Virus record (IMG/VR): IMGVR_UViG_3300002835_000001
Coordinates: 1-64,000 of that record
DNA length: 64,000 bases
Direction: 5' to 3' (one strand)
From: a virus
Lineage: Duplodnaviria > Caudoviricetes
The stretch's first letter is position 1, and each line of letters starts with the position of its first letter. Shown here in pieces: positions 8,217 to 52,729 of the stretch. The notes beneath the pieces were generated by a model, which worked only from the letters and a program-made list of their open reading frames with translations, did not search any database and had not been told where the DNA came from. The translations under genes were made by a program, and so were the position numbers.

Positions 8217-8528
8217 CTAAAGTCTTTCATTTGATTTATATCTCACTATTACTCTATCCTCACGTTCAAATATCAATCCCTGCCGATTTATATCATTGAT
8301 ATTATTATGGTTTACTTCAATACCCCGAATAATAATCCCAACAACACATATGGTAACCCCCGGATATCTATCAAATAACTCCCCAACCGTTCCATCAAAG
8401 GTATAACTGATTGTGTAGTCATCCGGTTCGATTAAGATACCTCTGGATGGTATTCTCCCAAATAGATTGGCCATCACATTCAAATGGAATATAACATAAC
8501 CTTTATGAAAGAACTTAAAAGGTCTCAC
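8217..8528 (-). CDS. FKFF-motif small protein
   Basis: ORF track 8217..8552; the GTG at 8528 gives the N-terminus MRPFKFFHKG. Confidence 0.65.
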   Translation of the reverse strand: MRPFKFFHKGYVIFHLNVMANLFGRIPSRGILIEPDDYTISYTFDGTVGELFDRYPGVTICVVGIIIRGIEVNHNNINDINRQGLIFEREDRVIVRYKSNERL

Positions 8529-8688
8529 TGATGAATCTTGTTCTTTCTTCACTATAGAATAGTTCCATTCCCCTCGGGTTACCTTGGTTCAATGTCCTTA
8601 ATCTATCCTCAATACTATGAGTTGAACCTATCCTATAGAATGTGGTTCCTTTCTCCTTTAAAACATAGACAATCTTCTTACTTTTCAT
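8515..8688 (-). CDS. short GIY-YIG/T5orf172-like protein, possibly truncated (57 aa)
   Basis: VYVLKEKGTTFYRIGST..IEDRLRTLNQGNP matches the T5orf172 N-terminal pattern. Confidence 0.5.
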   Translation of the reverse strand: MKSKKIVYVLKEKGTTFYRIGSTHSIEDRLRTLNQGNPRGMELFYSEERTRFISETF

Positions 8689-8691
8689 ATA

Positions 8692-8865
8692 TTAATTTTG
8701 ACTTAGTACATAATCAATCATTCTATTCCTCTTATATTTCTTATGTAACTTCTCCTTAACCTCTTTGGGTATTGTCCTTAAACACTTATTCAACTTCCTA
8801 CTCTCCATATATTTCTTATACCAATCTGATTGGATATATTCATCGTATGATTTATACTTTCCCAT
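8692..8865 (-). CDS. small basic hypothetical protein (57 aa)
   Basis: Hand translation MGKYKSYDEYIQSDWYKK... Confidence 0.45.
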   Translation of the reverse strand: MGKYKSYDEYIQSDWYKKYMESRKLNKCLRTIPKEVKEKLHKKYKRNRMIDYVLSQN

Positions 8866-8965
8866 GGGTTATTCTTCTTATTGTTCTTGTTGGTACATCT
8901 CCCCCTTCATTTGGGACCATATTTGGTACTCAGGTTGTTCAGATACTTTCATATAACGTGATTTA

Positions 8966-9508
8966 TTAATTAACAAATGAATATACAATACCTATTGATA
9001 ATCCACCAACATTATCATATCCGATATTTGGAGATATGTGACCTAATTTATATGACAATGATCCGCCCAACAATAAACCAGTACCATTACTTGTTGTTGT
9101 GTGATAATATCCATTACTTGATAAAATAAACATTCTATCATGTGCATTGTGGTAGGTATCTTTAGTATAAATCCCAACTTTACTTGATACGGTTAATTTT
9201 CTATGTCTATAACCAAATATTCCATAAAACCCCATCCCAATCCCATTTTTCTTTTCATATATTTCTTGAGGAAATTTATTTGGACCCATTGTTGTATATT
9301 CAACCCCAACACTATTTTTAGAAGATGGGAGAATCATTCCACCCCCAATACTAATATTATCTTTTCTCAAAACATTCATTTCAAATCCAATTGATGAATT
9401 ATTAAATCCGTAATAAAGGACCCAATTTACATCCTTTAAAGTGATATTTTGACCATAAGATACCATCGAAAATAACGAAATCCAAATAAATAATAGTGTC
9501 TTTTTCAT
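8966..9508 (-). CDS. putative outer-membrane beta-barrel protein with signal peptide
   Basis: MKKTLLFIWISLFSMVSYG|Q signal; alternating Gly/aromatic strands; C-terminal SIGIVYSF. Confidence 0.6.
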   Translation of the reverse strand: MKKTLLFIWISLFSMVSYGQNITLKDVNWVLYYGFNNSSIGFEMNVLRKDNISIGGGMILPSSKNSVGVEYTTMGPNKFPQEIYEKKNGIGMGFYGIFGYRHRKLTVSSKVGIYTKDTYHNAHDRMFILSSNGYYHTTTSNGTGLLLGGSLSYKLGHISPNIGYDNVGGLSIGIVYSFVN

Positions 9509-9561
9509 TTTTTTGTCTTGGTTTTCCTATACACCATAAGGTTTTGTGTTATAATACCCCA

Positions 9562-9592
9562 CAAATATATGACATAATTTAATAAAAACAAA
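9562..9592 (-). promoter_or_regulatory. Bacteroidota-type promoter
   Basis: Minus strand TTTG (9589-9592), 19-nt spacer, TATATTTG (9562-9569). Confidence 0.7.
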
Positions 9593-9658
9593 AATATATA
9601 TGATTATTTTGAACCTCGTATGCCGGTATCGGGTTCCTTTCCCCCCGCCGCGTTTTGA

Positions 9659-10513
9659 TTAAAATAAACCGAGACTCTTTAATATGTCTTCCTTGGGTGG
9701 GTTGTCCCATTGTGATTGACCATTATCTGAAACAAATCGATTGATAAGTGTTCCCTCATTTCTAATTAATTCGGGAACCTCAGGTAAACCCTTGGCCCAT
9801 GATAGTGTATTCTTAATGGACTTATTAACCTTAAATCTTCTTAAGATTGGTATCTTTGTCTTGTATATCTCAGCTTCAACCTTCTTGTACTTACCTTTTC
9901 TGGTGTTGTAGTCAAAGATATCCGATAAACTTTTTGCATCGTTTTCATAACAATTGGGTGTTAGTACCGCAACTGCGGTCTCACCATCAATGTTTAATAT
10001 AACCGCCACCAAATCCAACGCTTTAATGTCCTTTGAGATTACCAACTCATGCTTTCCAACATTAACTACAATATCAACATCGAACCCAAGTCCCATTCCA
10101 TTAATTCTTTTCATCTCCCTGTGGAATACTGGTCCGTGATTCCCATTCGGTTCAACAACCCTGTTCACCGCTTGGTAAACATGAATCATCTCATGAACAA
10201 GTACATCTCTAAACAAACTATATTTGACATCAAAGAATTTACTGACAGTAATAACAATCTTAACAATTTTTCCTGTTGCCTTCTCTACCCACGATTGTGT
10301 TGTTCCATGTGCGGACTTTCTTTTGCTCCAAGCAAATTCAATTCTAATGGGTCCACCCTTTTTTGGTAACTCACCATTGAACAAAAGGTCATTTAACTTT
10401 TCGTATTCATATACTAAATCAATATTCTTGAAATCCACAATCTCATCCATGGCATGTTCTTTGCTAATCTCATGTAATGTTAATAATTGTGATTCAGTAA
10501 TTAATATCTTCAT
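9659..10513 (-). CDS. SprT-like zinc metalloprotease with ITESQ-type N-terminal motif
   Basis: LNDLLFNGELP, VLVHEMIHVYQ (HExxH) and NHGPVF SprT signature; begins MKILITESQL. Confidence 0.85.
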   Translation of the reverse strand: MKILITESQLLTLHEISKEHAMDEIVDFKNIDLVYEYEKLNDLLFNGELPKKGGPIRIEFAWSKRKSAHGTTQSWVEKATGKIVKIVITVSKFFDVKYSLFRDVLVHEMIHVYQAVNRVVEPNGNHGPVFHREMKRINGMGLGFDVDIVVNVGKHELVISKDIKALDLVAVILNIDGETAVAVLTPNCYENDAKSLSDIFDYNTRKGKYKKVEAEIYKTKIPILRRFKVNKSIKNTLSWAKGLPEVPELIRNEGTLINRFVSDNGQSQWDNPPKEDILKSLGLF

Positions 10514-10517
10514 GTAT

Positions 10518-10524
10518 ATAAATA
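10518..10524 (-). promoter_or_regulatory. TATTTAT box (candidate late promoter)
   Basis: Same 7-mer lies 4-22 nt upstream of the starts at 10513, 13326, 23324, 25646, 28418, 30090, 34109, 35844 and 39736; inferred by analogy with T4 TATAAATA. Confidence 0.5.
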
Positions 10525-10556
10525 GTAGTTACTTCCGAGTTTGTCATTATAACATA

Positions 10557-11255
10557 TCAGGTTCCTCCCGCCGTTTTCTTTGATGATACCAAATCTACAA
10601 TCGTTTGGTTCAAACTATTGATTGTTTCGTTTAAATTTTTAATCTTTTCGTTTAAATTATCGATAACTAAATCTTTTTGTTTAACAATTTCTTCTAAGAT
10701 AGTGGTTTTATTATATGCTAAATCATATGTAATATATACTGTTTTATCCATTATGTGAAATCTACTTTTCTTGAGGTCAGTATTTAATTTTGAAGTAGAT
10801 TTAAAACCCATATACTTCTCTATCTTTTCCTGACCTGTCCCATATAAAAATAATTCTTCATATGTAACTAACATACCAACACCTATATTCCTTATTACAT
10901 CGTTGGATTCATCATAACCTATTTTTTTATTCCATATTTCATTATGGTGTTTTCTCAAAAAGGCTTCATCTATAATATATTTTTCCTTACCCCTCTGGTG
11001 ATATTTTTGTTTTTCTTCTGCCCACACAGTACTCTCAGCGGTTAGTATTGTATTTTCCCTAATTAACCTTATTACGTAATCGTATTCCTCGATGATATAA
11101 TCTGTCGATGGATGTCTTTTAATAATATAGTCATCGACCACCGAAGTGTCCTTATTTTCATTTTCGTAAATGGTTTTTAAGTTAAATTCCTCACCTAACC
11201 AATCTATTAATGAATGTGAACCACATCTCCCCTTTGCAATTATTAGAATTTTCAT
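10557..11255 (-). CDS. sulfotransferase-like P-loop protein with C-terminal coiled coil
   Basis: IIAKGRCGSHSL PAPS-binding-loop-like N-terminus; later vtYEEL motif. Confidence 0.55.
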   Translation of the reverse strand: MKILIIAKGRCGSHSLIDWLGEEFNLKTIYENENKDTSVVDDYIIKRHPSTDYIIEEYDYVIRLIRENTILTAESTVWAEEKQKYHQRGKEKYIIDEAFLRKHHNEIWNKKIGYDESNDVIRNIGVGMLVTYEELFLYGTGQEKIEKYMGFKSTSKLNTDLKKSRFHIMDKTVYITYDLAYNKTTILEEIVKQKDLVIDNLNEKIKNLNETINSLNQTIVDLVSSKKTAGGT

Positions 11256-11261
11256 ATGATA

Positions 11262-11882: not shown

Positions 11883-11948
11883 TCATTACAATAATAGACA
11901 ATCCTATTACAATTGTAAATGATATCATGACCGGAAATATTGTTCCCA

Positions 11949-13326: not shown

Positions 13327-13422
13327 TCCCTATAAATAGTTCTACAAAACTGGAACTTAGGTTAACATATTATTATCGACTTCCGAGATTGTCACGTTTT
13401 TACTTCCGACTTTGTCATTTTA

Positions 13423-13644
13423 TTATCTCCTTCTGTTTAATTCGTTATGAAATATAACACACCATTCATCATGTGTTCTTCCTTCATACGGATTTGGGAT
13501 AACCATATTGCCCTCCCCATTCATACATCTAATAATACTCACAATATGGTCAATAGATATATTCTCAAGACGATGTGATAACCCATTGGCCGTTCTCCAT
13601 CGTATTGGTGTTGGTTCCTGAAAGAATTTAAAGTCTTTTATCAT
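13423..13644 (-). CDS. FKFF-motif small protein
   Basis: Begins MIKDFKFFQE. Confidence 0.75.
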   Translation of the reverse strand: MIKDFKFFQEPTPIRWRTANGLSHRLENISIDHIVSIIRCMNGEGNMVIPNPYEGRTHDEWCVIFHNELNRRR

Positions 13645-13647
13645 TAG

Positions 13648-13908
13648 TTAAATTATATCTGGGAAGTTCCACATTGGGTGGTCTGAATATATTCTTTGTC
13701 CTTGCACTGTGTTCCCCTCTTCAATATGTCTAAACAACATAAATTTATATGGGGAAAGAGAATTAGGGTCAAACATAACTTGGGTTACATCAAAGAACAC
13801 ATGGTCATCTGTATCGTAGTATCTTGGGTTGTTTTCATCTATTGTAGATTCTAAGGTATACTCATCGGTATAAATCCTCCCCTTAAAAAATTTAAAAGGT
13901 AATCTCAT
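13648..13908 (-). CDS. FKFF-motif small protein
   Basis: Begins MRLPFKFFKG. Confidence 0.75.
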   Translation of the reverse strand: MRLPFKFFKGRIYTDEYTLESTIDENNPRYYDTDDHVFFDVTQVMFDPNSLSPYKFMLFRHIEEGNTVQGQRIYSDHPMWNFPDII

Positions 13909-14381
13909 TATAATCTATTTTGAAACCAATCAGGTACATCTCTGCCTTTCCACACACAAAAGTCTTTCTTATCCCCAAGATAATAGTTACGATATGATTG
14001 GATAGTATCGTCATAAACCTTATATTCATCGGGCATTGCAAGTGCTGGTGGTGTAAATTCTAAATCTTTAATCTTCGGTCTATTATATGCACACCATTCA
14101 ATAATCTCTTGTGTCTTATGACGTTTACCGTAACGATAGGTATACTCCTGACATAAATTGAACCCCAAGTCCACCAACCAAATGTAGTTCTGTAAATCTT
14201 CTCTAACCCATTTGGAACATGGATGATTCTTGTGTGATAACTTGTAAGGTGCTTCACCACCAGTTGCCCAATGAGCTCCACAAAGTAATTGGGCAGTCTC
14301 CAATATCATTTTAACCACGTGTTTATCGTTATGATACTGAGCACATAATTTAGGATTCCAATCTAAAATAAAAATGTTCAT
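13908..14381 (-). CDS. pyrimidine-dimer DNA glycosylase (DenV/Pyr_excise)-like protein
   Basis: MNIFILD..P..CAQYHNDKHVVKMILETAQLL, THxNHP-like HKNHP and YRNYY motifs. Confidence 0.7.
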   Translation of the reverse strand: MNIFILDWNPKLCAQYHNDKHVVKMILETAQLLCGAHWATGGEAPYKLSHKNHPCSKWVREDLQNYIWLVDLGFNLCQEYTYRYGKRHKTQEIIEWCAYNRPKIKDLEFTPPALAMPDEYKVYDDTIQSYRNYYLGDKKDFCVWKGRDVPDWFQNRL

Positions 14382-14990: not shown

Positions 14991-14994
14991 AAAA

Positions 14995-15294
14995 TTAATT
15001 TATAAATCTCACCCATTCAATTTCGATTAAATCATTTAATATATCAAATCCCCAACCACTATCATTGTTATCTATATTATGTATAATACCATTCGGTCCC
15101 GTGATTGATAAAATAGATATAACAAACCATGAGGGAAAGTTATTTAAAAATGAACGAATACCATAATGATGTTCAATATGAATATCATATTCATATTGAT
15201 CTAAATTCTCAAGTCTAACATACGTCCAAGACGCACCATCATACGGTTCAATTATTTCATCTTCATTATCTTGAAAGAATTTAAATGGTTTCAT
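14995..15294 (-). CDS. FKFF-motif small protein
   Basis: Begins MKPFKFFQD. Confidence 0.75.
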   Translation of the reverse strand: MKPFKFFQDNEDEIIEPYDGASWTYVRLENLDQYEYDIHIEHHYGIRSFLNNFPSWFVISILSITGPNGIIHNIDNNDSGWGFDILNDLIEIEWVRFIN

Positions 15295-15649
15295 TGTTTC
15301 TTATTACTCCTCTGAATATTAGTGGTATATCCCTTGGCATAGCATCAAAATTATCTTCGTTGTAACGTATCATATTACTTATATCCGCATTATCCACGAA
15401 TTCATATGCAAATATAATATTATCCCTATTCATTTCCATAAACTGATTGTATGAGTAAAAGTATCTATTGGTAACTGTCACCGTCATTGTCTTTAACTCC
15501 TCGGTATAAAAATTTCCATCCCATCTACATTCCATATAGAATATTACCCCCACAGGTCTATACATCCATTGTATTTGACCGAGGTAATCACTCCTCAAAT
15601 ACCATTTTCTTTTTATATTATTTTGCAAGAACTTGAACGGCTCAATCAT
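15281..15649 (-). CDS. FKFF-motif small protein (FKFL variant)
   Basis: Begins MIEPFKFLQN. Confidence 0.75.
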   Translation of the reverse strand: MIEPFKFLQNNIKRKWYLRSDYLGQIQWMYRPVGVIFYMECRWDGNFYTEELKTMTVTVTNRYFYSYNQFMEMNRDNIIFAYEFVDNADISNMIRYNEDNFDAMPRDIPLIFRGVIRNNETI

Positions 15650-16085
15650 TTCTAAATGTTAAAGTTATGTCAGCGTTGTTGTGGAATACTTCTCCTACCG
15701 TATCTTCATCCCATTTACATCGTTCATAAATAATATGATTTGTTTCCGCTTCAATATCAACAGTCATAAACGCATTTGCTTGAATTTCTTGAACCATTCT
15801 TCTAACCGCCACACTATTCATGTAAGTTATAACCTCATCAATCTTACCTCTAATATCATAATCACTATAAGAATTATATTTGTCTCTATATAATTTAGTC
15901 ATAACGATAATTAATGTATTTTTAACCCTATCATTATCCATTAGATTATTATCTAAAATATAATTCCACGTGATGTCTAATACACCAATCAATAATGGAA
16001 CATTTGTTGCATCATCTAATAAACCGGTTAGTTGCCAATTAACCCTTGTTATGTTAGATCTAAAAAATTTGAAGTCCTTTATCAT
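15642..16085 (-). CDS. FKFF-motif small protein
   Basis: Begins MIKDFKFFRS. Confidence 0.75.
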   Translation of the reverse strand: MIKDFKFFRSNITRVNWQLTGLLDDATNVPLLIGVLDITWNYILDNNLMDNDRVKNTLIIVMTKLYRDKYNSYSDYDIRGKIDEVITYMNSVAVRRMVQEIQANAFMTVDIEAETNHIIYERCKWDEDTVGEVFHNNADITLTFRND

Positions 16086-16384
16086 ACGTATCTTATTGTT
16101 GATGTTCTTCTTGTGTTAAAACAATCCAAATAACCCATTTCCCACGCAGTATGTAATGAATATATTAGTTCTTCTCTATTACCATATGGATTATTATATA
16201 TTTCCTCGCCTCTTTCACATGCTCTCCACCCCTGTAGGAATATACTACGAAGTTCTGGTGTGTCATATTCTTGACGAGTTGGTACTTGACTATTGGGTAA
16301 TCTTCTTAATCTACCATTGGTAATAATAGTATTAACCCTACTTTTCTTGGTCAGTCCGTGAAAAAATTTAAATAGGCTTACCAT
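16082..16384 (-). CDS. FKFF-motif protein with Rmf/CrpP-like C-terminal domain
   Basis: Begins MVSLFKFFHGLTKK; C-terminal FLQGWRACERG..NPY..AWEMGY resembles the Rmf pattern. Confidence 0.6.
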   Translation of the reverse strand: MVSLFKFFHGLTKKSRVNTIITNGRLRRLPNSQVPTRQEYDTPELRSIFLQGWRACERGEEIYNNPYGNREELIYSLHTAWEMGYLDCFNTRRTSTIRYV

Positions 16385-16631
16385 CTTCTTCCCACTCTTT
16401 AATGTTTTTTAATATCGTTTCAGTTAGTTCTTTTGTTTTATCATCCAACAGTCTCATCATCTCAATATCTTTTGGATTTGTTTCATCCCACGCAGATTCT
16501 TCTCTTGCACCTGATTCGTGAATAACATTGTTAATCATGAACCAACACGACATTTTAATTCTTGTTTCCAACGATGTTTCTTTTAACAACTCACTTATAG
16601 TGTTTGATAAAATCTTTCTTGCTTTTGCCAT
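16368..16631 (-). CDS. hypothetical protein
   Basis: 87 aa ORF in the operon. Confidence 0.7.
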   Translation of the reverse strand: MAKARKILSNTISELLKETSLETRIKMSCWFMINNVIHESGAREESAWDETNPKDIEMMRLLDDKTKELTETILKNIKEWEEDGKPI

Positions 16632-16632
16632 A

Positions 16633-16884
16633 TTATACGTTTGGGTATTTTAAAAACCATTGAGCAAATTTATATAACAACTGAATCGTTGCAACAATAA
16701 TAAACATTGGTGCGGTTACAAACCAACTCAATGAAAAGAATAGATAAGCCTCAGCATTATTTTTATAGTCATCATAGTCAGGTTCGTGTGGTGGATCATA
16801 ATCAATCTCCATTTTCTTACCATATAACTTTAAGAATGTTAGTGTTAGGATAAATCCTATTATGTAAATTAAAATGTAAATCAT
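16633..16884 (-). CDS. small membrane protein
   Basis: Two hydrophobic segments. Confidence 0.7.
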   Translation of the reverse strand: MIYILIYIIGFILTLTFLKLYGKKMEIDYDPPHEPDYDDYKNNAEAYLFFSLSWFVTAPMFIIVATIQLLYKFAQWFLKYPNV

Positions 16885-16885
16885 A

Positions 16886-17110
16886 TTATCTTCTGTTTAA
16901 TTGTCTACCCGCAGCAGATGGTGTATTTAAATAACATTCATAAGTCATATAACAACTAAATCCAGTTTCCTGCTTGAGAAACTTAAACTCATTATTATAC
17001 ATGTTCATTACGATGCAATAATACCCTTGGAATATAAAAGATGAACCAACCATAAGTCTACATTTATCTTTGTAAGGATTCTTCTGAAAGAACTTGAATT
17101 CATTTACCAT
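16886..17110 (-). CDS. FKFF-motif small protein
   Basis: The ATG at 17110 gives MVNEFKFFQK and overlaps the upstream stop. Confidence 0.7.
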   Translation of the reverse strand: MVNEFKFFQKNPYKDKCRLMVGSSFIFQGYYCIVMNMYNNEFKFLKQETGFSCYMTYECYLNTPSAAGRQLNRR

Positions 17111-17535
17111 ATACTTAGTATTTTGGCGATTCCGATGATTGTAACCATTGTTAACAATATACTCACAACAACAACACCAATAGGTTCTAACCTCCAAGTT
17201 TCTTGAAGAACTATCTTTACCTTCGTCCAAAACTTTGGGTTAACGGTTGTTACCGTTGTTGCTTGAAATAATCTTATTGGGTTATCATTTAAATCTCTTG
17301 AATCGTTAGTCATTTGTAGTCTTCTTAGGATATCTTGATGTCTCTCCGGTGTGCCCAACCTACCTCTTGGTATTTCATATGAACCGCGAAGTCTATCATA
17401 TAGATTACGATCTGTGTGATATAACATTCTTCTATAAACGTGACCATCGGCTGTGTCATCATTGAATGATGCGGTTGCACGTACATCATCATCAATCATG
17501 TTTAAAGTTCCCTTAAAGAACTTGAAGTCTTTCAT
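17104..17535 (-). CDS. FKFF-motif protein with C-terminal TM helix
   Basis: Begins MKDFKFFKG; hydrophobic C-terminus. Confidence 0.75.
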   Translation of the reverse strand: MKDFKFFKGTLNMIDDDVRATASFNDDTADGHVYRRMLYHTDRNLYDRLRGSYEIPRGRLGTPERHQDILRRLQMTNDSRDLNDNPIRLFQATTVTTVNPKFWTKVKIVLQETWRLEPIGVVVVSILLTMVTIIGIAKILSIW

Positions 17536-17915
17536 TACTTAATATTTGAATTATAGAATGTGTTTGTAGATATTGTTCCCGTTGTTGTGAAAGATCCAAC
17601 CATACCGGTTGTGGTGTAGGTTATTCCGTTTGGATTTGATGTTATTAAACTAAGTCCTGTTGATGTTCCTGAACTTATACATGGAATTGTGAGATAATCA
17701 TTACCCAAATAGTTTGGTGTTGTTGTTATAGTTCCCGTTCCATTTAATGGATAATCACCAATAAAACGATTTGGATAGTAGTTTGGTATTGTTATTGTAC
17801 CATATCCTGGAGTTACAGTTAACCTATTGATATCGTTTATTCTATTGATATTATTCCAATCAATTTCTATTGATATGTCATCAACATACCCCCTAAAAAA
17901 TTTAAATTCTCTCAT
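17535..17915 (-). CDS. FKFF-motif Thr/Gly-rich protein
   Basis: Begins MREFKFFRG; GTGTITT-like low-complexity repeats. Confidence 0.75.
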   Translation of the reverse strand: MREFKFFRGYVDDISIEIDWNNINRINDINRLTVTPGYGTITIPNYYPNRFIGDYPLNGTGTITTTPNYLGNDYLTIPCISSGTSTGLSLITSNPNGITYTTTGMVGSFTTTGTISTNTFYNSNIK

Positions 17916-18041
17916 ATATTTCTTTTAATCTACAATTTACCCCATTGGGATTTATGTTTATTTTCTTCCGCAATTTTAAATCCTAACCAAATGTCTTTGA
18001 AAAATTGTTTGATATTTTTTAATATAAATAGCTTCATAGTT

Positions 18042-22606: not shown

Positions 22607-22810
22607 TTATATGTCGTCTCCTTTATAGAATCTTCCCGGTGTAAGTAACTTTTCAATGCTAATTGTTCCTTTTGTCTGTGGGGTTGGCGCAAAAAGATCT
22701 TCTTCAGGGCTCATATTTTCAAGCGTTTCCTCGATGTCCGATTTAATCTTCTCGTCAAGAGATTCCATAATCATTTTATCCAATTGTTCTTTTGTTACTT
22801 TAATTTTCAT
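22607..22810 (-). CDS. ITESQ-type motif small protein
   Basis: MKIKVTKEQLDKMIMESL. Confidence 0.65.
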   Translation of the reverse strand: MKIKVTKEQLDKMIMESLDEKIKSDIEETLENMSPEEDLFAPTPQTKGTISIEKLLTPGRFYKGDDI

Positions 22811-23324
22811 ATTCTTGGGTTTTATTTGGTTCACCAACATTTATTGTTTGACTTGGGTATTGTTTGTCAAAATAATTTAACTTGTCTTTTATTTGACCCG
22901 GTCCATCACTAATCATTTCCATCAATGTTTCAAACATATTCTTCATATCATCTAAGTCGCTAGCAAGTGTGTCCAAATCGGAAACTAAATGATAATACTC
23001 ATTTATTTGTTCTTCATTCTCCTCATCACCCTCAAGTGCTGAATGAATATCATAATATTGATTTGACTTCTTATAATAATGAGCGGCCATTGTGTCAATC
23101 TCACTAAACATTTTTTGGTATTTTTGAACATCGTTAAGAATCTCACCGACACTCAAATCTTTAATAATGTTTAATAATTGATTACCAAACTTCTTACCAT
23201 CATGTATTAATTTCACAACTTCTTGTGTATACTTGGGTAATTGATTTACATCAAAACTAATACTCAATGATTCTTTAATCATTTGTTTTAGTTGACTTTT
23301 AGTAACTTTAATTGTCTTGGTCAT
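22800..23324 (-). CDS. ITESQ-type motif helical protein
   Basis: MTKTIKVTKSQLKQMIKESL; TATTTAT box at 23329-23335. Confidence 0.7.
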   Translation of the reverse strand: MTKTIKVTKSQLKQMIKESLSISFDVNQLPKYTQEVVKLIHDGKKFGNQLLNIIKDLSVGEILNDVQKYQKMFSEIDTMAAHYYKKSNQYYDIHSALEGDEENEEQINEYYHLVSDLDTLASDLDDMKNMFETLMEMISDGPGQIKDKLNYFDKQYPSQTINVGEPNKTQEYEN

Positions 23325-23556
23325 CTCTATAAATATCATCTTCTTCGATTTCTTCAATCGAGTCTATAATTAATTTATCCGACGGGTATTGGGCAACCAA
23401 CTCAAAGATAGTTTCAGGAGAGCCGTACTCACCGATTGATTTAACTTTCTTATGAAATCTAGTAGCACAAACTGAGTCGGGATGTACAGTATCTGCAATA
23501 ATCTCGATAGATCTGGTTTCAGACCCAATAATTAAATAACCTGAATATCTTTTCAT
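23308..23556 (-). CDS. hypothetical protein
   Basis: 82 aa ORF. Confidence 0.6.
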   Translation of the reverse strand: MKRYSGYLIIGSETRSIEIIADTVHPDSVCATRFHKKVKSIGEYGSPETIFELVAQYPSDKLIIDSIEEIEEDDIYRDDQDN

Positions 23557-24862: not shown

Positions 24863-25093
24863 TTAGAAATTTCCCGTTAAAAATTGATAAACCACTTCGG
24901 GGATATGAGTACAAACGTGAGGTTCTCCATTTTTGGTACATTCAATATGAGGTAAATTTTTAATATATTCCTTCATGTATTTTGGACCTTTTGATAATCT
25001 TTTAACCACATATTCTCTTGAATATAATTGTTCTGAATCGTAATATTCCGATAATAAGTTAGTATATTGTGATTCTGTGATAAGTAATTTCAT
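24863..25093 (-). CDS. ITESQ-motif small protein
   Basis: MKLLITESQYTNLLSE. Confidence 0.7.
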   Translation of the reverse strand: MKLLITESQYTNLLSEYYDSEQLYSREYVVKRLSKGPKYMKEYIKNLPHIECTKNGEPHVCTHIPEVVYQFLTGNF

Positions 25094-25095: not shown

Positions 25096-25257
25096 TTATA
25101 AGTCTTTAAATAAATCTTTTATACTGGAACCTCCCTTTAATATTAAATATCCAAGTCCGAATGTAACTAATAATATTGCAAACATCATGAATGTGTGGTA
25201 TACAAAGCCATATGCTAAAAACAAGGTAATTAAAATTATTATTATCCATTTTTTCAT
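25096..25257 (-). CDS. small membrane protein (53 aa)
   Basis: Hand translation MKKWIIIILITLFLAYG...; more plausible than track ORF 25106..25288. Confidence 0.55.
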   Translation of the reverse strand: MKKWIIIILITLFLAYGFVYHTFMMFAILLVTFGLGYLILKGGSSIKDLFKDL

Positions 25258-25646
25258 AATTTAAATAACCTTTTAAACTGAGACTCACTTATAACCATCA
25301 TTTGTTTACGTGACTTAGGTGTGGTTGATTCGTTTATCTTTCTGTGTGCATATTTCTCATAATCTTCACGACTTAAACATCTCTGTAATTCCACTTTCTT
25401 TACCGACTTGTCACTCACATCTTCCAAAATATCAAATCTAATTCTATATTCTGGATTGTTTGTGTATCTTATACGATAACCACCCAATCCTGAATCTAGT
25501 TTCTTAATATCTAATAGTTCGTATAGTTTAACAAAATTAGGTGCATTTTTAATGGTTTCAATGACTTCGTCGGTTGCCTTTTTGTGTTTTGGCATCCTAA
25601 TATCCTTTAAATCTTTCAAAAATCTTGATGTATATACTATTTCCAT
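25254..25646 (-). CDS. RelE/ParE-family toxin-like protein with C-terminal ISESQF motif
   Basis: MEIVYTSRFLKDLK, IKKL..G.YRIR..YRI.F and REDYEK are typical RelE features. Confidence 0.7.
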   Translation of the reverse strand: MEIVYTSRFLKDLKDIRMPKHKKATDEVIETIKNAPNFVKLYELLDIKKLDSGLGGYRIRYTNNPEYRIRFDILEDVSDKSVKKVELQRCLSREDYEKYAHRKINESTTPKSRKQMMVISESQFKRLFKL

Positions 25647-29790: not shown

Positions 29791-30090
29791 TTACATTTCA
29801 ATTCGAGATATAACCTTTCTTGTTTTTGGGTCAATGGCGTACATGTATCCATCGTCTCCTTGAGCTAACGCAAGTTCTACTGGATTACCACTACCACTTT
29901 CTAAATCATTTTCTTCTGATGAATTGAAAAAATCAACTTCAGCAAGTTCACTACTATAATCTTTATCTTCCGAATCATCATATGTCACCTCACCGTCAGG
30001 TAATTGGTACGTTCCGGTTTCTTGTTCATTTACGATATTAGTTACAATACTTTCAATATCTGATTGTGTTAATTTTACTACTTTTGACAT
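29791..30090 (-). CDS. ITESQ-type motif acidic protein
   Basis: MSKVVKLTQSDIESIVTNIVNEQ; TATTTAT box at 30103-30109. Confidence 0.7.
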   Translation of the reverse strand: MSKVVKLTQSDIESIVTNIVNEQETGTYQLPDGEVTYDDSEDKDYSSELAEVDFFNSSEENDLESGSGNPVELALAQGDDGYMYAIDPKTRKVISRIEM

Positions 30091-30228
30091 ATTCTTTTAT
30101 ATATAAATACTCTTTATTATGATTTCTTCTTGTGAATCCCCTTCTTTTGGTTCATCTTAGTGGTTTTTTTAGCCATTTTAAGTCTATTCTTTGTTTTTTG
30201 TTCTCTTTTTGTCATGTAAATAAATACA

Positions 30229-30997: not shown

Positions 30998-31651
30998 CTA
31001 TCCTATAACATTTTGCATTTCATCCGTATGATGATCATCAACCCCAAGTTCGGAACCAATCGGTCTCTTCTTCATGTCGTTTATAACTTTCCTTAAATCA
31101 TATGGTGCAAATTCAGGATTACCATCCATCCCAACATCCATTCTACGACCATTTCCAAACTTTTTATGGTTAGGTAGGTGACAATGTCCATGAAGGTGAA
31201 TACGTCCTTTATTCAATCCATTCCACGAAGCAATTGGGTAGTGCATCAACTCAAGTGTTTCACCTAAGTAATTTAATTGTAGGAACCATTGTGATGATGC
31301 AAAATGTCTTTGGCAAGCTTCACGGTCCCTTTCAATATGGTGGTCATGATTACCAAAAGTTAAATGAATCTCTTTACAGATAATTCTATTACGAAACTCT
31401 TCTATTTGTTCAAACCCACCAAACGACCAATCACCTAAATGAATCAACACATCATCCTGACCGACAACCTCATTGATGTTGTTAACTATTGATGCGTTCA
31501 TTTTATCTAGATTCATGAAATCTCTAGTTTGTGCTTCAGGTACGGAACCATCTAACATTCTCCATTTAGTTACACCACGACATATGTTTGTGTGGTTATA
31601 ATGTGTATCGGATGTTATCCAAACCTTTCTATTGTTCTCTATCTTTAACAT
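30998..31651 (-). CDS. calcineurin-like metallophosphoesterase
   Basis: TSDTHYNH, HLGDWS, GNHD, MHYP and LHGHCH motifs. Confidence 0.9.
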   Translation of the reverse strand: MLKIENNRKVWITSDTHYNHTNICRGVTKWRMLDGSVPEAQTRDFMNLDKMNASIVNNINEVVGQDDVLIHLGDWSFGGFEQIEEFRNRIICKEIHLTFGNHDHHIERDREACQRHFASSQWFLQLNYLGETLELMHYPIASWNGLNKGRIHLHGHCHLPNHKKFGNGRRMDVGMDGNPEFAPYDLRKVINDMKKRPIGSELGVDDHHTDEMQNVIG

Positions 31652-32064
31652 TATCCTCTGAAAAATTTAAAATCTTTATTATTTATCCTTCTATTTGGTG
31701 GTTCTATTCTTTCTATTGTAGACCTAATTGCCGTTTCTCTTTCTAATTGTGCTTGAGCAATTCGTGATATCGGTGGCGGAGGTGGGATAATTCTACCAAA
31801 ACTTGTCATTCGTTGTCTGTTAATTTCTGACATTGTTCTAAACCATCCTCTATGTTGATTGTTACTCTCCCGTTCCATTACCCCATAATATTTCTTCTTC
31901 TCCTCAACATCCTTTCCTACTATTAAAGCCAATATTGGTCCTAACAATAATGCGCCTATTATCATATCCAAACCCAATGTATAATGTTTATTATGATAAT
32001 ACATTACATATGTTGATGACATTATCCAAACCAATATTAAAAAAACGATTAATAACGTACTCAT
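31651..32064 (-). CDS. membrane protein with C-terminal DFKFFRG motif
   Basis: Two TM helices; ends NKDFKFFRG-stop. Confidence 0.7.
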   Translation of the reverse strand: MSTLLIVFLILVWIMSSTYVMYYHNKHYTLGLDMIIGALLLGPILALIVGKDVEEKKKYYGVMERESNNQHRGWFRTMSEINRQRMTSFGRIIPPPPPISRIAQAQLERETAIRSTIERIEPPNRRINNKDFKFFRG

Positions 32065-34109: not shown

Positions 34110-34176
34110 AATTAAGATAATTCCTTTGATATAAATATAAATTTTTCCAGAATAATCTTGTACCTTAGTCGGTTAA

Positions 34177-35844: not shown

Positions 35845-35865
35845 AATAATATAAATACTCAGAAA

Positions 35866-46770: not shown

Positions 46771-46772
46771 GT

Positions 46773-47986: not shown

Positions 47987-48033
47987 ATTTCAAATATATA
48001 AAATTCTTTTGGTAATTCCAAATAATTATAGTT

Positions 48034-49072: not shown

Positions 49073-49162
49073 TTCTTTTTTGATTTAAATTTTATATATT
49101 TTTATTAAAGTTAAGAAATAAAAACCAATAAACCAAAATATTTATAAAAAAACACACAAACT

Positions 49163-49327: not shown

Positions 49328-49407
49328 GTAAAATATCGGATAGGACTATTTTGTTTTGTCCGATATTTTTTTTATACTTGATATATATAATTTTATATAT
49401 TATAAAC

Positions 49408-49605
49408 ATGAAAACAGAACAAAAACTAACAAGCGTCAATATATTGGATGATGTTTACAAAAAATTTAAAACTAAATCGATTGAGGGTTCTATTAATTTA
49501 CAAAAATTAGTGAATCGTTCTATGGATTTATACAATAAAGATGAAAACTTTAGAAGTACAATAAACAATCACGTTGGATTGGCGACGACAGGATCTAAAT
49601 TTTAA
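49408..49605 (+). CDS. small putative RHH-type regulator heading the glycan operon
   Basis: KLTSVNI...YKKFK...NLQKLVNRSMDLY strand-helix-helix pattern. Confidence 0.5.
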   Translation: MKTEQKLTSVNILDDVYKKFKTKSIEGSINLQKLVNRSMDLYNKDENFRSTINNHVGLATTGSKF

Positions 49606-49606
49606 T

Positions 49607-50968
49607 ATGAAGAAGAAAAAAATACTTTTATTATCTGACGATTTAAGGATGACATCCGGAATTGCCACTATGTCGAAAGAAATTGTGATGGGTACCATTC
49701 ACAAATATGATTGGGTACAATTAGGTGCAGCGATTAAACATCCTGAGTTCGGTAAAATTGTTGATGTTAACGACGATATTAGAACAAGGACCGGTGTTAA
49801 AGATGCTAATTTGAAAATTATTCCGTATAATGGTTATGGTGACGTTGGTATTCTTCGTAAATTAATAGACGATGAGAAACCAGATGCCATTTTACACTTT
49901 ACTGACCCACATTATTGGCAGTGGTTATATGATGTTGAGCATGAGATAAGACGACACACTCCAATATTATTTTATCATATATGGGATGATTTACCGGACC
50001 CACAATACAATAGAGATGTTTTTGAATCTTGTGATTGGTTGGGTTGTATATCTAAACAAACGTATGGTATCGTACATCGTGTTGGTAAGAGAACTGATAA
50101 AGTAACATTTAATCCATTAAAGGATTGGCAAATTAGTTATGTTCCTCATGGTATTAATCCTGATTTATTTAAACCATTGGATAGAATATCGGATGATATT
50201 AATAATTTAATTCATGGTGATAAGAAATATGATTTTGTTTTATTCTTTAACAGCAGAAACATTAGAAGGAAACAACCAAGTGATGTGATTTATTCATTTA
50301 GATTGTTCTGTGATATGTTACCAAAAGAAAAGGCGGATAAGTGTTTGTTACTAATGCACACGAATCCTGTTGATGAGAATGGTACCGACTTACCTGCTGT
50401 AATTGATGCTGTTTGTAAAGATTACGACGTTAAGTTCACCAATTTAAAATTGGAACAAGATAAATTAAATGAAATTTACAATGGTGTTGATTGTACGATT
50501 AACATTGCAAACAATGAAGGATTTGGATTAACAACTGCTGAGAGTTTAATGGCGGGTGTACCAATCATTGTTAATGTTACTGGTGGTTTACAAGACCAAT
50601 GTGGATTTGATTATACAGAAGATGATTACATTAATGTAGGTACACTTCACAATAAAGAAGTACATGGTAACATAAATCATGGTGACTGGGTTGAACCTGT
50701 TTGGTCGTCAGCTATTAATTTGAATGGTTCGGTACTAACACCATATATCTTTGACGATAGAGTTAATGACAATGATGTTGCAAATGCCATCATGGAGATG
50801 TATAAAATTGGTAAGAAGAAAAGAAAAGAAAAAGGATTAAAGGGTAGGAAGTTTATGATTAACAATCTATCAAATAAAATAATGTGTGATAAAATGATTG
50901 AGGGTATTGAACAAACCTTAGAGAATTTTAAACCAAGAAGTAAATTTAATTTATACAAGATTATATAA
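49607..50968 (+). CDS. glycosyltransferase (GT-B/GT4-like)
   Basis: YVPHGI, RNIRRKQ and NEGFGLTTAESLMAG motifs. Confidence 0.9.
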   Translation: MKKKKILLLSDDLRMTSGIATMSKEIVMGTIHKYDWVQLGAAIKHPEFGKIVDVNDDIRTRTGVKDANLKIIPYNGYGDVGILRKLIDDEKPDAILHFTDPHYWQWLYDVEHEIRRHTPILFYHIWDDLPDPQYNRDVFESCDWLGCISKQTYGIVHRVGKRTDKVTFNPLKDWQISYVPHGINPDLFKPLDRISDDINNLIHGDKKYDFVLFFNSRNIRRKQPSDVIYSFRLFCDMLPKEKADKCLLLMHTNPVDENGTDLPAVIDAVCKDYDVKFTNLKLEQDKLNEIYNGVDCTINIANNEGFGLTTAESLMAGVPIIVNVTGGLQDQCGFDYTEDDYINVGTLHNKEVHGNINHGDWVEPVWSSAINLNGSVLTPYIFDDRVNDNDVANAIMEMYKIGKKKRKEKGLKGRKFMINNLSNKIMCDKMIEGIEQTLENFKPRSKFNLYKII

Positions 50969-50969
50969 T

Positions 50970-52217
50970 ATGAACAAACCATTTTTATTATTTAGAGGAC
51001 CAGTTAAAACAAGAAGTGGATATGGTGCCCACTCAAGAGATTTGTTACAAGCACTTTATGAAATGGATTTGTTTGAAATCAAGATTGATAGTTGTATGTG
51101 GGGTTCAACCCCGATGACGGCATTGGAAGATAATTTATTTCATAAATGGATTGAGTCTAATATTGTTAATCAATTAGAAAAAACACCAGACATTTACGTT
51201 CAAGTAACTGTTCCAAATGAATTCCAAAGAGTTGGTAAATTTAATATCGGGATTACTGCCGGCATTGAAACGACTATTGCGCCTAAGGATTGGATTGATG
51301 GTTGTAATAGAATGGATTTAATTGTTACAACATCCACCTTTTCAAAAGATGTTTTGTTACAAACAGTTTACAATGAGAATGAACAAAATACCGGTAAATT
51401 AATTAAACAACATAAGATTGAAAGACAAATAGAAGTTCTATTTGAAGGTGTTGATACCAAAATATACAACAACGTTTATAACAATATTGACATTGACATC
51501 AAAGAAGATTTCGCTTACCTATTTGTTGGTCATTGGTTAAAGGGCGACACGGGTCAAGATAGAAAAGATGTTGGTATGTTGATTAGATGTTTCGCTGAAG
51601 CATTTAAAGATGTTGAAGATAGACCTGCTCTCATCCTTAAAACATCATCAGCATCGTTCTCAATTAAAGAAAGAGAAAGTTTTAGAAAGAAGATAGAAGG
51701 GTTAGTGAGTGATTATAAAAATCCACCATCAATCTATTTGTTGTTTGGTGATTTAACTAATGATGAGATGAATAATTTATATAATCATCCTAAAGTTAAA
51801 TCAATGGTAACGATTACAAAAGGTGAAGGGTTTGGTAGACCTTTATTAGAATTTACAATGACAGGTAAACCCGTAATTGCATCAAACTGGTCAGGACATA
51901 AGGATTTCCTACCAATGGATAAAGCAATTATGATTGGTGGTAAATTAACCGAGGTTCATGAAAGTGCGGTTGATACTTTTATATTGAAAGATTCTAAATG
52001 GTTTACCGCAAACTACAACGAAGTGACTGAAGTTTTTAAATTGGTTTATAAAGACTACGATAAATTTTTAGAGAAGTCTATGATGTTGGGTGATGAGAAT
52101 AAAGAAAAATTCTCAATGGAAAAAATGAAAGAAAAGTTTAAAGATATTATTAATCCATTCTCAGTACAACCAAAAGAACAAAAACTTATACTACCTAAAC
52201 TTACTAAAATAAAATAA
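50970..52217 (+). CDS. glycosyltransferase (GT-B/GT4-like)
   Basis: RSGYG.HSR and KGEGFGRPLLE...PVIASNWSGH motifs. Confidence 0.9.
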   Translation: MNKPFLLFRGPVKTRSGYGAHSRDLLQALYEMDLFEIKIDSCMWGSTPMTALEDNLFHKWIESNIVNQLEKTPDIYVQVTVPNEFQRVGKFNIGITAGIETTIAPKDWIDGCNRMDLIVTTSTFSKDVLLQTVYNENEQNTGKLIKQHKIERQIEVLFEGVDTKIYNNVYNNIDIDIKEDFAYLFVGHWLKGDTGQDRKDVGMLIRCFAEAFKDVEDRPALILKTSSASFSIKERESFRKKIEGLVSDYKNPPSIYLLFGDLTNDEMNNLYNHPKVKSMVTITKGEGFGRPLLEFTMTGKPVIASNWSGHKDFLPMDKAIMIGGKLTEVHESAVDTFILKDSKWFTANYNEVTEVFKLVYKDYDKFLEKSMMLGDENKEKFSMEKMKEKFKDIINPFSVQPKEQKLILPKLTKIK

Positions 52218-52218
52218 G

Positions 52219-52482
52219 GTGATGAACTTTAAATTTTTTCAAGGGAAGACTAACTTGTTTTTAGAATTGGAACCAACACAAATATTAACATTAACACGAC
52301 CATCATTTACATCAGAGAATGTTGAGTTTTGTTTTCAGTTCGGGAACAACGAACCAGTTGTATTTGCAACAGGTCCTAACGAATGTAGTATACATTTGAG
52401 TCCAACTATTAGTAGTGAAATGTCATTCACGGATAATGATAACGTATTTAAATTATTTGCAAGGGAGAGACAAAATGATTAG
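52219..52482 (+). CDS. FKFF-motif small protein
   Basis: Begins MMNFKFFQG. Confidence 0.7.
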   Translation: MMNFKFFQGKTNLFLELEPTQILTLTRPSFTSENVEFCFQFGNNEPVVFATGPNECSIHLSPTISSEMSFTDNDNVFKLFARERQND

Positions 52483-52729
52483 TGAATTTAAATTTTTTCA
52501 CGGGATAACAAAAAAGGGGATTAGAAGACTTCGTGCTACTTGGGGTCCTGATTTAATTGAAAGACGTGTCGATGTTGAAGGGGAATTAATAAGAGTAATG
52601 TCACAGGAAATTGCTAGAGGTATTGATAAGGAAATCATTAATACAATAGTAAGAAGAATAAATGGTGGTAGTAATCATGGTATTGATTATTTAAACCATT
52701 GGTTAAGAGTAGGGGAGAATAGAGCATGA
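52475..52729 (+). CDS. FKFF-motif protein carrying a T4 gp23-like major capsid fragment
   Basis: MISEFKFFHGITKK followed by RRLRATWGPDL..DVEGELIRVMSQEIARGIDKEII. Confidence 0.6.
   Translation: MISEFKFFHGITKKGIRRLRATWGPDLIERRVDVEGELIRVMSQEIARGIDKEIINTIVRRINGGSNHGIDYLNHWLRVGENRA

Follow-up and report, generated by a model that had tools for sequence, protein, structure and literature searches.

Why should thirteen small phage genes, whose products otherwise look unrelated, share a short FKFF peptide at one end? The question arose from 64,000 nt of a Caudoviricetes genome (IMG/VR record IMGVR_UViG_3300002835_000001, positions 1 to 64,000; hereafter the window). To answer it we considered whether the peptide is more frequent than composition predicts, whether it is selected as protein or as DNA, on which proteins it occurs, and what could read it.

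FKFF peptides in the window

All thirteen open reading frames (ORFs) of the original prediction were present, twelve tagged at the N-terminus and one at the C-terminus (Table 1). The twelve begin with M-x(1-3)-F-K-F-[F/L]. The six reading frames of the window held 19 copies of FKF[FL], just five of them in non-coding frames. The other 14 were in real genes: 12 at or before residue 8, one C-terminal and one internal. The internal EFKFLKQ of ORF 16886..17110 was missing from its paralog in the related genome G001.

Against the 12 N-terminal matches observed, 2000 composition-preserving shuffles gave a mean of 0.04 when whole proteins were shuffled and of 0.13 when the N-terminal residue pool was shuffled, with a maximum of two in any shuffle. 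The original observation is thereby confirmed. In the array at 14995–17915, seven of nine consecutive ORFs carry the tag, with start/stop overlaps of 1–14 nt. The longer leader FKFFHG[LI]TKK was likewise found on ORFs 16082..16384 and 52475..52729.

The ATG start given for ORF 52219..52482 is probable because its relatives start MNFKFF. For ORF 8217..8528, a relative in L088 has an ATG at the position of the GTG start. None of the tagged proteins had an above-threshold match in Pfam or PHROG, and sub-threshold capsid matches were limited to ORF 52475..52729. Among the papers searched, none paired FKFF with phages, in keeping with the earlier remark that the motif is unlike any described system.

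Table 1 Tagged ORFs and neighboring features of the window.
Coordinates	Strand	Feature	Remarks
8217..8528	-	N-tagged ORF, 103 aa, MRPFKFFHKG	GTG start 8526-8528
13423..13644	-	N-tagged ORF, 73 aa, MIKDFKFFQE	tagged relatives at 5 other loci
13648..13908	-	N-tagged ORF, 86 aa, MRLPFKFFKG	longer leader ...IYTDEYT common to other families
13908..14381	-	denV-like gene, untagged, within array	Pfam PF03013 (Pyr_excise), E = 2.6e-6
14995..15294	-	N-tagged ORF, 99 aa, MKPFKFFQD	
15281..15649	-	N-tagged ORF, 122 aa, MIEPFKFLQN	
15642..16085	-	N-tagged ORF, 147 aa, MIKDFKFFRS	body modelled as helical bundle (low-confidence AF2)
16082..16384	-	N-tagged ORF, 100 aa, MVSLFKFFHGLTKK	RMF-like body (lead only)
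16886..17110	-	N-tagged ORF, 74 aa, MVNEFKFFQK	second, internal EFKFLKQ
17104..17535	-	N-tagged ORF, 143 aa, MKDFKFFKG	C-terminal transmembrane helix (tail-anchored)
17535..17915	-	N-tagged ORF, 126 aa, MREFKFFRG	Thr/Gly/Asn-rich body; first gene of the array
18023..18030	-	late-promoter-like motif TATTTATA	107 nt upstream of first array gene
31651..32064	-	two-helix membrane protein, 137 aa, C-terminal tag	ends ...KDFKFFRG-stop
52219..52482	+	N-tagged ORF, about 86 aa, MNFKFFQG	probable start ATG 52222
52475..52729	+	N-tagged ORF, 84 aa, MISEFKFFHGITKK	body copies a segment of gp23-type capsid protein

A peptide tag on unrelated proteins

From related contigs we assembled a larger set of 138 tagged genes. 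The share of TTT at the three tag Phe positions was 80%, 62% and 78%, compared to 74% elsewhere in these genes, and the share of AAA at the tag Lys was 72%, compared to 68%. First and second codon positions were fixed, third positions varied freely at background usage, and 26 distinct 12-mers encoded the tag. The synonymous variation first noticed in the window, and with it selection at the level of the peptide, thus extends to the larger set.

Could the conserved element instead function as nucleic acid, serving in DNA or RNA as a binding site, a translation start region or a linker at which cassettes recombine and are shuffled, with the peptide as a by-product? Tandem tag sequences do occur at some gene junctions (G001 9020–9065 and about 323,380–323,430), cassettes are gained and lost between strains, and T4-type genomes shuffle genes via conserved boundary motifs (PMC2839356). 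PeSL cassettes and hyperplastic regions (PMC2839356, PMC4122927) also combine arrays of small orphan genes, gained and lost, with a repeated boundary element. That element is, however, non-coding promoter-plus-hairpin DNA, whereas FKFF is coding and selected as a peptide. With third positions free, so many different 12-mers, no enrichment in other reading frames, and conservation at C-termini that have no translation start downstream, we consider a nucleic acid element extremely improbable. The tag may have spread through recombination at tag DNA.

The 138 proteins fell into 43 body clusters. An all-against-all BLASTP gave nothing with E < 0.1, and hhalign among 18 tagged family profiles reached a top probability of just 10%, so the bodies are unrelated, as had been claimed. 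Rapid divergence within a single paralog family, whose conserved N-terminus would then be nothing unusual, would account for the tandem arrays, the similar small sizes and the longer leader FKFFKGYVYSDEYTLP common to some families. It has to be set against the lack of pairwise or profile similarity, against bodies that range from a capsid fragment and a helical bundle to a Thr/Gly-rich protein and to tail- and N-anchored membrane proteins, and against C-terminal tags in at least two well-sampled families, and we regard it as very unlikely.

The membrane-anchored, Thr/Gly-rich and capsid-like body types proposed originally were recognized, and the Rmf-like one is a lead only. For this last body (16082..16384), the Atlas feature score was 0.81 against virus clusters with RMF in 11–13% of members, a value that shuffled proteins often reach. 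The body of ORF 52475..52729 matched residues 359–405 of the clade capsid protein (BLASTP E = 9e-10), with sub-threshold matches to Pfam Gp23 (E = 6e-4) and PHROG 138 (E = 4e-4). Its relatives scored E = 1e-13 to 1e-16. Toward its N-terminus, gp23 was also weakly matched by a 155-aa tagged family (RRxAGRTIAQDLVPVQP; Pfam E = 1e-3, BLASTP E = 0.33). The median pI of the tagged proteins was about 6 to 6.5, i.e., they are not basic.

The tag was retained in families tagged at either end. In the family of ORF 15642..16085 (314 homologs), it was found in 120 of 120 among the matches listed. The family of ORF 31651..32064 (445 homologs) had KDFKF[FL] in 119 of 120 listed homologs and CKFL in one, located 1–10 residues from the C-terminal end; 0–10 variable residues come after the tag in this family, and F-K-F was invariant in its alignment A2. 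A second C-tagged membrane family, in which the tag ends RG-COOH, kept it in 119 of 120 listed homologs. Across the three families no K-to-R change was seen in F-K-F among about 360 listed homologs. Because the listed relatives of both N- and C-tagged families retain it, the tag is portable and works at either end.

Soluble and tail-anchored carriers have the tag at the N-terminus, and N-anchored membrane carriers at the C-terminus. Membrane proteins make up three carrier families, of which two are C-tagged, and the C-terminal transmembrane helix of ORF 17104..17535 was conserved in 12 relatives. The distance between Met and tag ranged from 1 to 4 residues; M-x-x-F-K-F-F was the commonest spacing (86 of 138), and about 30% were shifted by one residue. 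The tagged tails are predicted, at low confidence, to be flexible and without structure: the AF2 model of ORF 15642..16085 had a pLDDT of 57.7, with residues 1–27 below 50, and in that of ORF 31651..32064 residues 121–137 were unstructured (low confidence).

Transmembrane segments were found in 14 of 128 tagged proteins. These, the aromatic and Lys/Arg composition and the terminal position at either end would suit a membrane-targeting peptide, with basic and aromatic residues lying on the inner-membrane surface. MinD has such a peptide at its C-terminus, Noc and MreB at their N-termini, and those of MinD, FtsA, MreB and Noc are similarly terminal, basic and aromatic, with 8–12 residues. They are, however, amphipathic helices with loose sequence needs, tolerating swaps among F/L/I/W and between K and R, whereas the FKFF core is shorter (about 6–8 conserved residues, then Gly), nearly invariant in F-K-F, and found also on proteins that already span the membrane, where it would be redundant. 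An acidic residue or Pro also falls inside the would-be hydrophobic face. Membrane targeting is therefore decidedly improbable.

We conclude that protein-level selection maintains [K/R]-[P/D/E/T/S]-F-K-F-[F/L]-[Q/R/K]-[G/K/N] as a portable peptide tag, which more than 40 (at least 43) unrelated families of small phage proteins carry at a free end. Peptide-level selection, unrelated bodies, retention in the listed relatives, and placement at either end on tails unstructured in low-confidence models are the behavior of a short linear docking motif, and of neither a diverged paralog family nor a DNA site. The tag-plus-cargo module of the original prediction was borne out in these respects; its hub or partner can only be inferred.

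Phage clade, arrays and promoters

The related contigs are uncultured T4-type phages of 270–335 kb. Three of them (G001–G003) encoded a gp23-type capsid protein (PF07068, E about 1e-63), a gp21-type protease (PF03420, E = 1e-21 to 1e-25) and, between the two, where the scaffold gp22 would be expected, an acidic protein of 420 aa; the order is that of T4. The capsid protein of the clade retains an I-N-E/A cleavage site at the expected place. No head genes were found within the window, and the head-module proteins of the relatives were without the tag. Tag carriers numbered 12–21 per genome; the genome-wide counts were taken from G001. In Flavobacterium phage immuto, whose capsid protein is 40% identical to that of the clade, and in LR756508 and LR756502, the tag was absent or at control level. 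Since it is missing from nearer T4-like relatives (immuto, LR756508), a likeness to T4 would point to loss there or to convergence.

Array content varies even among near-identical strains, and strains with an identical 15642..16085 protein carried different sets of cassettes. In G001, the motif TATTTATA lay mostly 3–40 nt before terminase, portal, protease, scaffold and tail genes. The 107-nt gap between this motif and the main window array is atypically long. The head-gene motif is the reverse complement of the T4 late promoter TATAAATA; the latter was rejected as the late promoter of the clade, as it is not positioned before head genes. Most arrays were preceded by host-type TAnnTTTG motifs, of a kind that AT-rich DNA often contains by chance. 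Genes behind late promoters in the clade bear other N-terminal motifs, and these could be the true virion labels.

Candidate readers of the tag

As the best explanation, to which we give somewhat less than an even chance, we propose that FKFF corresponds in this clade to the capsid-targeting sequence (CTS) of T4. The CTS of the internal proteins IPI, IPII and IPIII is known from T4 (Mullaney and Black 1996, reviewed in PMC9026906, PMC3012670, PMC9958956), and its targeting determinants are residues 4 and 7 (PMC9026906). T4 ipI starts MKTFKEF, and ipII and ipIII start MKTYQEFIAE; the clade has MK[P/T/D/E]FKFF. Phe stands at both residues 4 and 7 in 86 of 138 tagged proteins, where T4 has Tyr/Phe and Phe, a match at the level of sequence only. 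The T4 internal proteins are 95–193 aa long and mutually unrelated, with the CTS alone in common (PMC3012670). Similarly, ~10 N-terminal residues are common here to unrelated small proteins with a median length of 108 aa.

The genomic setting is also alike. G001–G003 have the T4-type head module with gp21, gp22 and gp23. T4 has the gene order denV-ipII-ipIII, with early-type promoters upstream of the ip genes and denV adjoining, and the window has a denV-like gene inside its array and host-type promoter motifs before most arrays. T4-type genomes have hyperplastic regions, and the cassettes differ between clade strains as in those regions (PMC2839356). In addition, one tagged family bears a real capsid protein segment, and a second is a weak match.

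As a CTS, the tag would dock its carrier, through the aromatic residues at positions 4 and 7 of the commonest spacing, onto the scaffold and core proteins of the assembling prohead. In this way the head would take up many different small proteins, and these would enter the next infected cell along with the DNA. T4 proheads assemble at the inner membrane, and membrane-anchored carriers may tether or seed the core there. The tag would stay on, as a gp21-type protease would not remove FKFF, unlike in T4.

Several features differ from T4. In T4, gp21 cuts the CTS off at the [L/I]-x-E site with which it ends, whereas no such site goes with the FKFF tag: [L/I]-x-E occurred in 13% in the first 15 residues after the tag and in 10–20% further on, i.e., without enrichment. 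While the T4 CTS is N-terminal on soluble, mostly basic proteins, and we know of no membrane or C-terminal carrier for it, the FKFF carriers are not basic and include membrane proteins and C-terminal tags. There are 12–21 of them per genome compared to three in T4, their Met-to-tag distance varies, and the tag is absent from nearer T4-like relatives. The untagged head-module proteins and the other N-terminal motifs behind late promoters also speak against a CTS. A complex prediction of a 121-aa tagged protein with two candidate core proteins and the C-terminal part of the scaffold, run without controls, scored 0.00 and counts neither for nor against this reading. The T4 analogy drawn originally is thus favored by the T4-type relatives and the IPI start, and weakened by the membrane carriers and the missing protease site. 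Encapsulin cargo-loading and microcompartment encapsulation peptides are also short terminal peptides sending unrelated cargo into a protein shell, and the HK97 fold is common to encapsulin shells and phage capsids; these peptides differ in having other sequences and in binding the shell protein directly, and the shell here is gp23-type.

Membrane proteins among the carriers, the acidic to neutral bodies and the host-type promoter motifs fit as well with docking onto another common phage or host hub, the carriers being intracellular takeover or accessory proteins. They would probably plug in by an added beta-strand, and the membrane-anchored ones would bring the hub to the membrane. Further points in its favor are that the tag acts at either end, on tails unstructured in the models, and that F-K-F hardly ever varies, without a single K-to-R change among the listed homologs; such near-invariance points to a specific pocket. 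The clade also has candidate hubs, e.g., a small heat-shock protein that itself begins LFKDPFFRG. However, no candidate partner was backed by any test. A ClpC-like ATPase and ClpP are also encoded by large phages without the tag, and a clamp-binding motif was rejected because the C-terminus of the clade DNA polymerase does not resemble the tag. The similarity to T4 IPI, the denV neighbor and the capsid-derived cargo would be left unexplained. We regard a non-capsid hub as possible, though rather doubtful.

The tag could also be a terminal degradation signal for timed removal by an AAA+ protease, either the phage ClpC-like ATPase with ClpP or the host FtsH, ClpXP or Lon. AAA+ proteases recognize short peptides at either terminus of soluble and membrane proteins, as in the ssrA tag, lambda O and FtsH substrates. 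The FKFF tags are similarly short and portable (compare also ClpX motifs) and lie on exposed tails, and G001–G003 encoded their own ClpP (E = 4e-58) along with a ClpC-type ATPase of 670 aa without the N-domain. Co-occurrence of Clp genes and tag was rejected, since LR756502 and LR756508 have the same Clp genes and no tag. To our knowledge, FKFF is unlike known degradation signals. Signals of this kind at a C-terminus typically finish with nonpolar residues, whereas the tag ends in RG-COOH in the second C-tagged membrane family and is followed by 0–10 variable residues in the first, and degradation would leave the capsid-derived cargo segments unexplained. We regard a degradation signal as unlikely.

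Of similarly low probability is that FKFF is one of several terminal labels in a private phage protein-address code, not homologous to T4, with each label placed at either end of unrelated proteins and having its own reader machine. Viral proteins might then be sorted, some into the capsid, some to the membrane and others to destruction at a set time. Other labels might be the ITESQL-type helix and MKLLDII of late genes and the K-T-L-I C-terminus of biosynthetic enzymes.

For T4 itself we know of two distinct CTS versions. The placement of its internal proteins in the prohead core has been called 'mysterious', and the core structure unresolved (PMC9958956). If the FKFF tag is a CTS, the clade adds hundreds of natural tag variants and a cargo of more than 40 families, with F-K-F fixed, cleavage dispensable and C-terminal action possible, which would be useful in the search for the receptor and for engineered protein delivery by phage heads. 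Large environmental T4-like phages would then bring 12–21 proteins into the cell with their DNA, a pre-made arsenal far exceeding that known for T4. Should the reader be something else, for example a chaperone, a protease or a site on the membrane, then a widespread group of phages would be using a sorting signal not described before; a single tagged family already has more than 300 homologs in public metagenomes.

Tagged genes of the window and their clade

All twelve ORFs of the window said to carry the FKFF tag, a short F-K-F-[F/L] peptide, at their N-terminus start with M-x(1-3)-F-K-F-[F/L]. The thirteenth, 31651-32064, ends in ...KDFKFFRG, and its stop codon shares nucleotides with the ATG of the gene that follows. 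ORF 8217-8528 has a GTG start (8526-8528), reading MRPFKFFHKG, and a relative has ATG at that place; for ORF 52219-52482, ATG 52222 is the likelier start. In the six reading frames of the window FKF[FL] was found 19 times, 14 of them inside real genes: 12 at the N-terminus, one at the C-terminus and one internal. Compared with the 12 N-terminal matches seen, 2000 composition-keeping shuffles gave a mean of 0.04-0.13 and never more than two. Protein 16886-17110 had an extra internal EFKFLKQ (residues 41-47), not kept in its paralog in the related IMG/VR phage G001.

The window had no close DNA match to cultured phages. Three related IMG/VR records, G001 (335,630 bp, estimated complete), G002 and G003, had genes for a capsid protein of the gp23 type (E about 1e-63) and for a prohead protease of the gp21 type. 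Between the two genes, in the position of the scaffold (gp22), was a very acidic protein of 420 aa, and terminase and portal genes were found upstream of the head module, in a T4-like arrangement. The nearest cultured capsid proteins were those of Flavobacterium phage immuto (40% identity), Microcystis phage Mel-JY01 and Rhodothermus phage RM378. In G001, 21 of 436 ORFs had an N-terminal tag: 19 formed one array (3.7-17.5 kb), and the other two were at 303 kb. Two further proteins had a C-terminal tag. The tag is specific to the clade of uncultured T4-type large phages that includes the window phage and G001-G003. It was absent from the head-module proteins of this clade, from immuto and from the uncultured phages LR756508 (484 kb) and LR756502 (642 kb). 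JGI samples that contained the clade included 3300020554 and 3300042889. A literature search found no pairing of FKFF with phage.

Three pattern scans of IMG/VR gave 94 tagged loci, 22 with at least two tagged ORFs and some with up to 16 within 10-14 kb. Together with the window, these loci supplied 138 tagged genes for an analysis of codon usage. TTT made up 80, 62 and 78% at the three Phe positions (background 74%) and AAA 72% at the Lys position (background 68%), and 26 distinct 12-mers encoded the tag. Tag codons thus match the usage of the genes themselves, in agreement with the predicted selection on the peptide and not on a DNA site. The constraint is confined to codon positions 1 and 2, indicating selection on the protein; that the conserved element is a signal acting in DNA or RNA is extremely unlikely. 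The tag consensus was M-[K/R]-[P/E/D/T/S]-F-K-F-[F/L]-[Q/R/K/S]-[G/K/N], with conservation decaying about six residues past the first Phe.

Cargo families and tag position

When the tag was trimmed off, BLASTP gave no similarity among the window proteins, and the 138 tagged proteins formed 43 clusters, mostly with one member per phage, which are thus orthologous groups that each retain the tag. For the 18 clusters with at least three members, profile-profile probabilities never exceeded 10%, and Pfam and PHROGs searches assigned the tagged proteins to no family. Since neither BLASTP nor profiles gave similarity and the bodies are truly different, we rejected the reading of the tagged proteins as one diverged paralog family, which is highly improbable. 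From the bodies originally listed, the membrane-anchored, Thr/Gly-rich and capsid-like ones were confirmed, and the Rmf-like one stays a lead. Copies of capsid segments among the small tagged proteins were found in window 52475-52729, in G001 (302925-303215) and in a 155-aa family (e.g., 5576-6049 of the related locus L054). The match of the 155-aa family was weak and fell on the conserved RR...I-A-x-D-L-x-x-V-Q-P segment of the gp23-type capsid protein, which corresponds to the EF-Tu-binding T4 Gol peptide. The tagged copies may associate with the capsid or act as decoys of host sensors for capsid protein.

In a collection of 5.8 billion proteins, the 15642-16085 family had 314 homologs, with the tag in 120 of the 120 listed. 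The membrane protein 31651-32064 had 445; among 120 listed, 119 had KDFKF[FL] and one CKFL, always 1-10 residues from the C-terminus. The linker preceding this tag varied in sequence and length, and F-K-F was invariant in the alignment. A second membrane family, with an N-terminal anchor (G001 8577-9044), replaces window genes in strain L144. Of its 120 listed homologs, 119 ended in x-F-K-F-[F/L]-R-G-stop, with D, E, S, T or P preceding the first Phe, as in N-terminal tags. Lys was replaced by Arg in none of the ~360 listed homologs of the three families. Both N- and C-tagged tails were unstructured in the AlphaFold models, the confidence of which was low to moderate.

Kept at the N- or C-terminus of these families, the tag behaves as a portable motif, functional at either end and placed on the terminus that lies free in the cytoplasm. 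The C-terminal tags exclude any reading in which the N-terminus must be free or a start codon is needed. Across the clade, a tag under selection as a peptide sits at either end of proteins from more than 40 unrelated families, which supports the original prediction of a modular tag plus cargo.

Strains L143-L146 had an identical 15642-16085 protein, and whole cassettes differed from window 16368-17110 at one junction. One strain had there an extra 153-aa tagged gene, another a 73-aa membrane protein and a C-tagged membrane protein. At G001 ~323,380-323,430 and 9020-9065 the C-terminal tag of one gene and the N-terminal tag of the gene downstream lie within 10-30 nt of each other; at window 31651-31671 the C-terminal tag is left alone, the downstream tagged gene missing. 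The adjoining tags at junctions suggest that tags spread or fuse through recombination at tag DNA.

Late promoters and other terminal motifs

The sequence TATTTATA, the reverse complement of the T4 late promoter TATAAATA, behaves as the late promoter of the clade. G001 had 107 copies, 69 outside ORFs. It was found within 70 nt upstream of 64 genes, including terminase, portal, protease, scaffold and tail genes, mostly 3-40 nt ahead of the ATG, so that late mRNAs would be nearly leaderless. Genes right behind this promoter tended to bear other N-terminal motifs, and it may be these that actually label virion proteins.

A second shared terminal motif, on mostly unrelated bodies, followed the pattern [I/V]-T-E-S-Q-L-K-x-[L/I]-I. 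G001 had 10 N-terminal cases (0.55 expected), nine directly behind a late promoter, and a RelE-like window protein carried the motif at its C-terminus (...VISESQFKRLFKL). A third motif at the N-terminus, MKL[L/M/I]D[I/L][I/L/V]xE, was found in seven G001 proteins, six of them encoded just downstream of a late promoter. As the gap to the promoter is only 3-7 nt, this motif might reflect a constraint on the initially transcribed sequence instead of the peptide. Seven G001 proteins with G-C-S near the N-terminus (e.g., genes 54832 and 306571) are probably an expanded SGNH-type hydrolase family.

Features of the window and of G001
Feature	Genome	Position	Strand	Remark
Helical-bundle body, low confidence	window	15642-16085		AlphaFold model
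Possibly RMF-like protein	window	16082-16384		lead only
Tail-anchored membrane protein	window	17104-17535		C-terminal helix kept in 12 relatives
Thr/Gly-rich protein	window	17535-17915		
gp23-type capsid protein fragment	window	52475-52729		BLASTP E = 9e-10 vs clade capsid protein residues 359-405
TATTTATA	window	10517-10524, 13331-13338, 30102-30109, 34130-34137, 35850-35857	-	
TATTTATA	window	49139-49146	+	
[I/V]-T-E-S-Q-L-K-x-[L/I]-I, N-terminal	window	22607-22840, 22800-23339, 24863-25093, 29791-30090, 9659-10513		
[I/V]-T-E-S-Q-L-K-x-[L/I]-I, C-terminal	window	25254-25646		
MKL[L/M/I]D[I/L][I/L/V]xE	G001	15550, 18951, 21498, 21952, 42494, 44070, 46935		
ClpC-type double-AAA ATPase without N-domain	G001	109705-111717	-	
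Small heat-shock protein	G001	111874-112230	+	adjoins ATPase gene
ClpP	G001	212530-213207	+	

Candidate roles of the tag

The clade encodes ClpP, a 670-aa ClpC-type ATPase lacking the N-domain and a small heat-shock protein beginning with LFKDPFFRG, so the tag could be a terminal degradation signal or a motif for docking onto a chaperone. Yet LR756502 and LR756508, both without the tag, also encode the ClpC-type ATPase and ClpP, and we consider a degradation signal improbable. Docking onto some other common partner is conceivable, if rather doubtful. The composition of the tag would fit a membrane-binding peptide, but the near-invariance of F-K-F does not, making this role very unlikely; a clamp-binding motif is unlikely too.

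Tentatively, the leading candidate is that the tag does the job of the T4 capsid-targeting sequence (CTS) but stays uncleaved. In T4, the first ten residues of internal protein III are enough to bring foreign proteins into the head, residues 4 and 7 mainly serving targeting and residues 8 and 10 processing; apart from this sequence the internal proteins show no relationship to each other and differ from phage to phage, and their core receptor is unknown (PMC9026906, PMC3012670, PMC9958956). In the T4 genes read here, internal proteins II and III begin with MKTYQEFIAE and internal protein I with MKTFKEF, identical in six of seven residues to the MKTFKFF of several clade proteins. At the commonest spacing, the invariant Phe of the tag are residues 4, 6 and 7, compared with the targeting residues 4 and 7 of the CTS. 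The T4 ip genes are small (95-193 aa) and have early-type promoters ahead, with no late promoter within 90 nt; tagged arrays are mostly preceded by host-type promoter motifs. The ip genes adjoin denV, and a denV-like gene lies inside the window array. The differing tagged cassettes of strains with an identical 15642-16085 protein resemble the T4 hyperplastic regions (PMC2839356). Tagged cargo copying part of the capsid protein also points toward the head.

Several features differ from T4. The clade capsid protein retains an [L/I]-x-E-type site at the expected place, whereas this cleavage motif was not enriched downstream of the tag in the tagged proteins. The carriers are not basic, the spacing from Met to the tag is variable, and the lack of the tag in nearer relatives does not fit the T4 reading. 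Membrane proteins make up three of the carrier families, and in two of these the tag is C-terminal. T4 proheads assemble on the inner membrane (PMC9958956), and membrane carriers would thereby be reconcilable with a role of the tag like that of the CTS.
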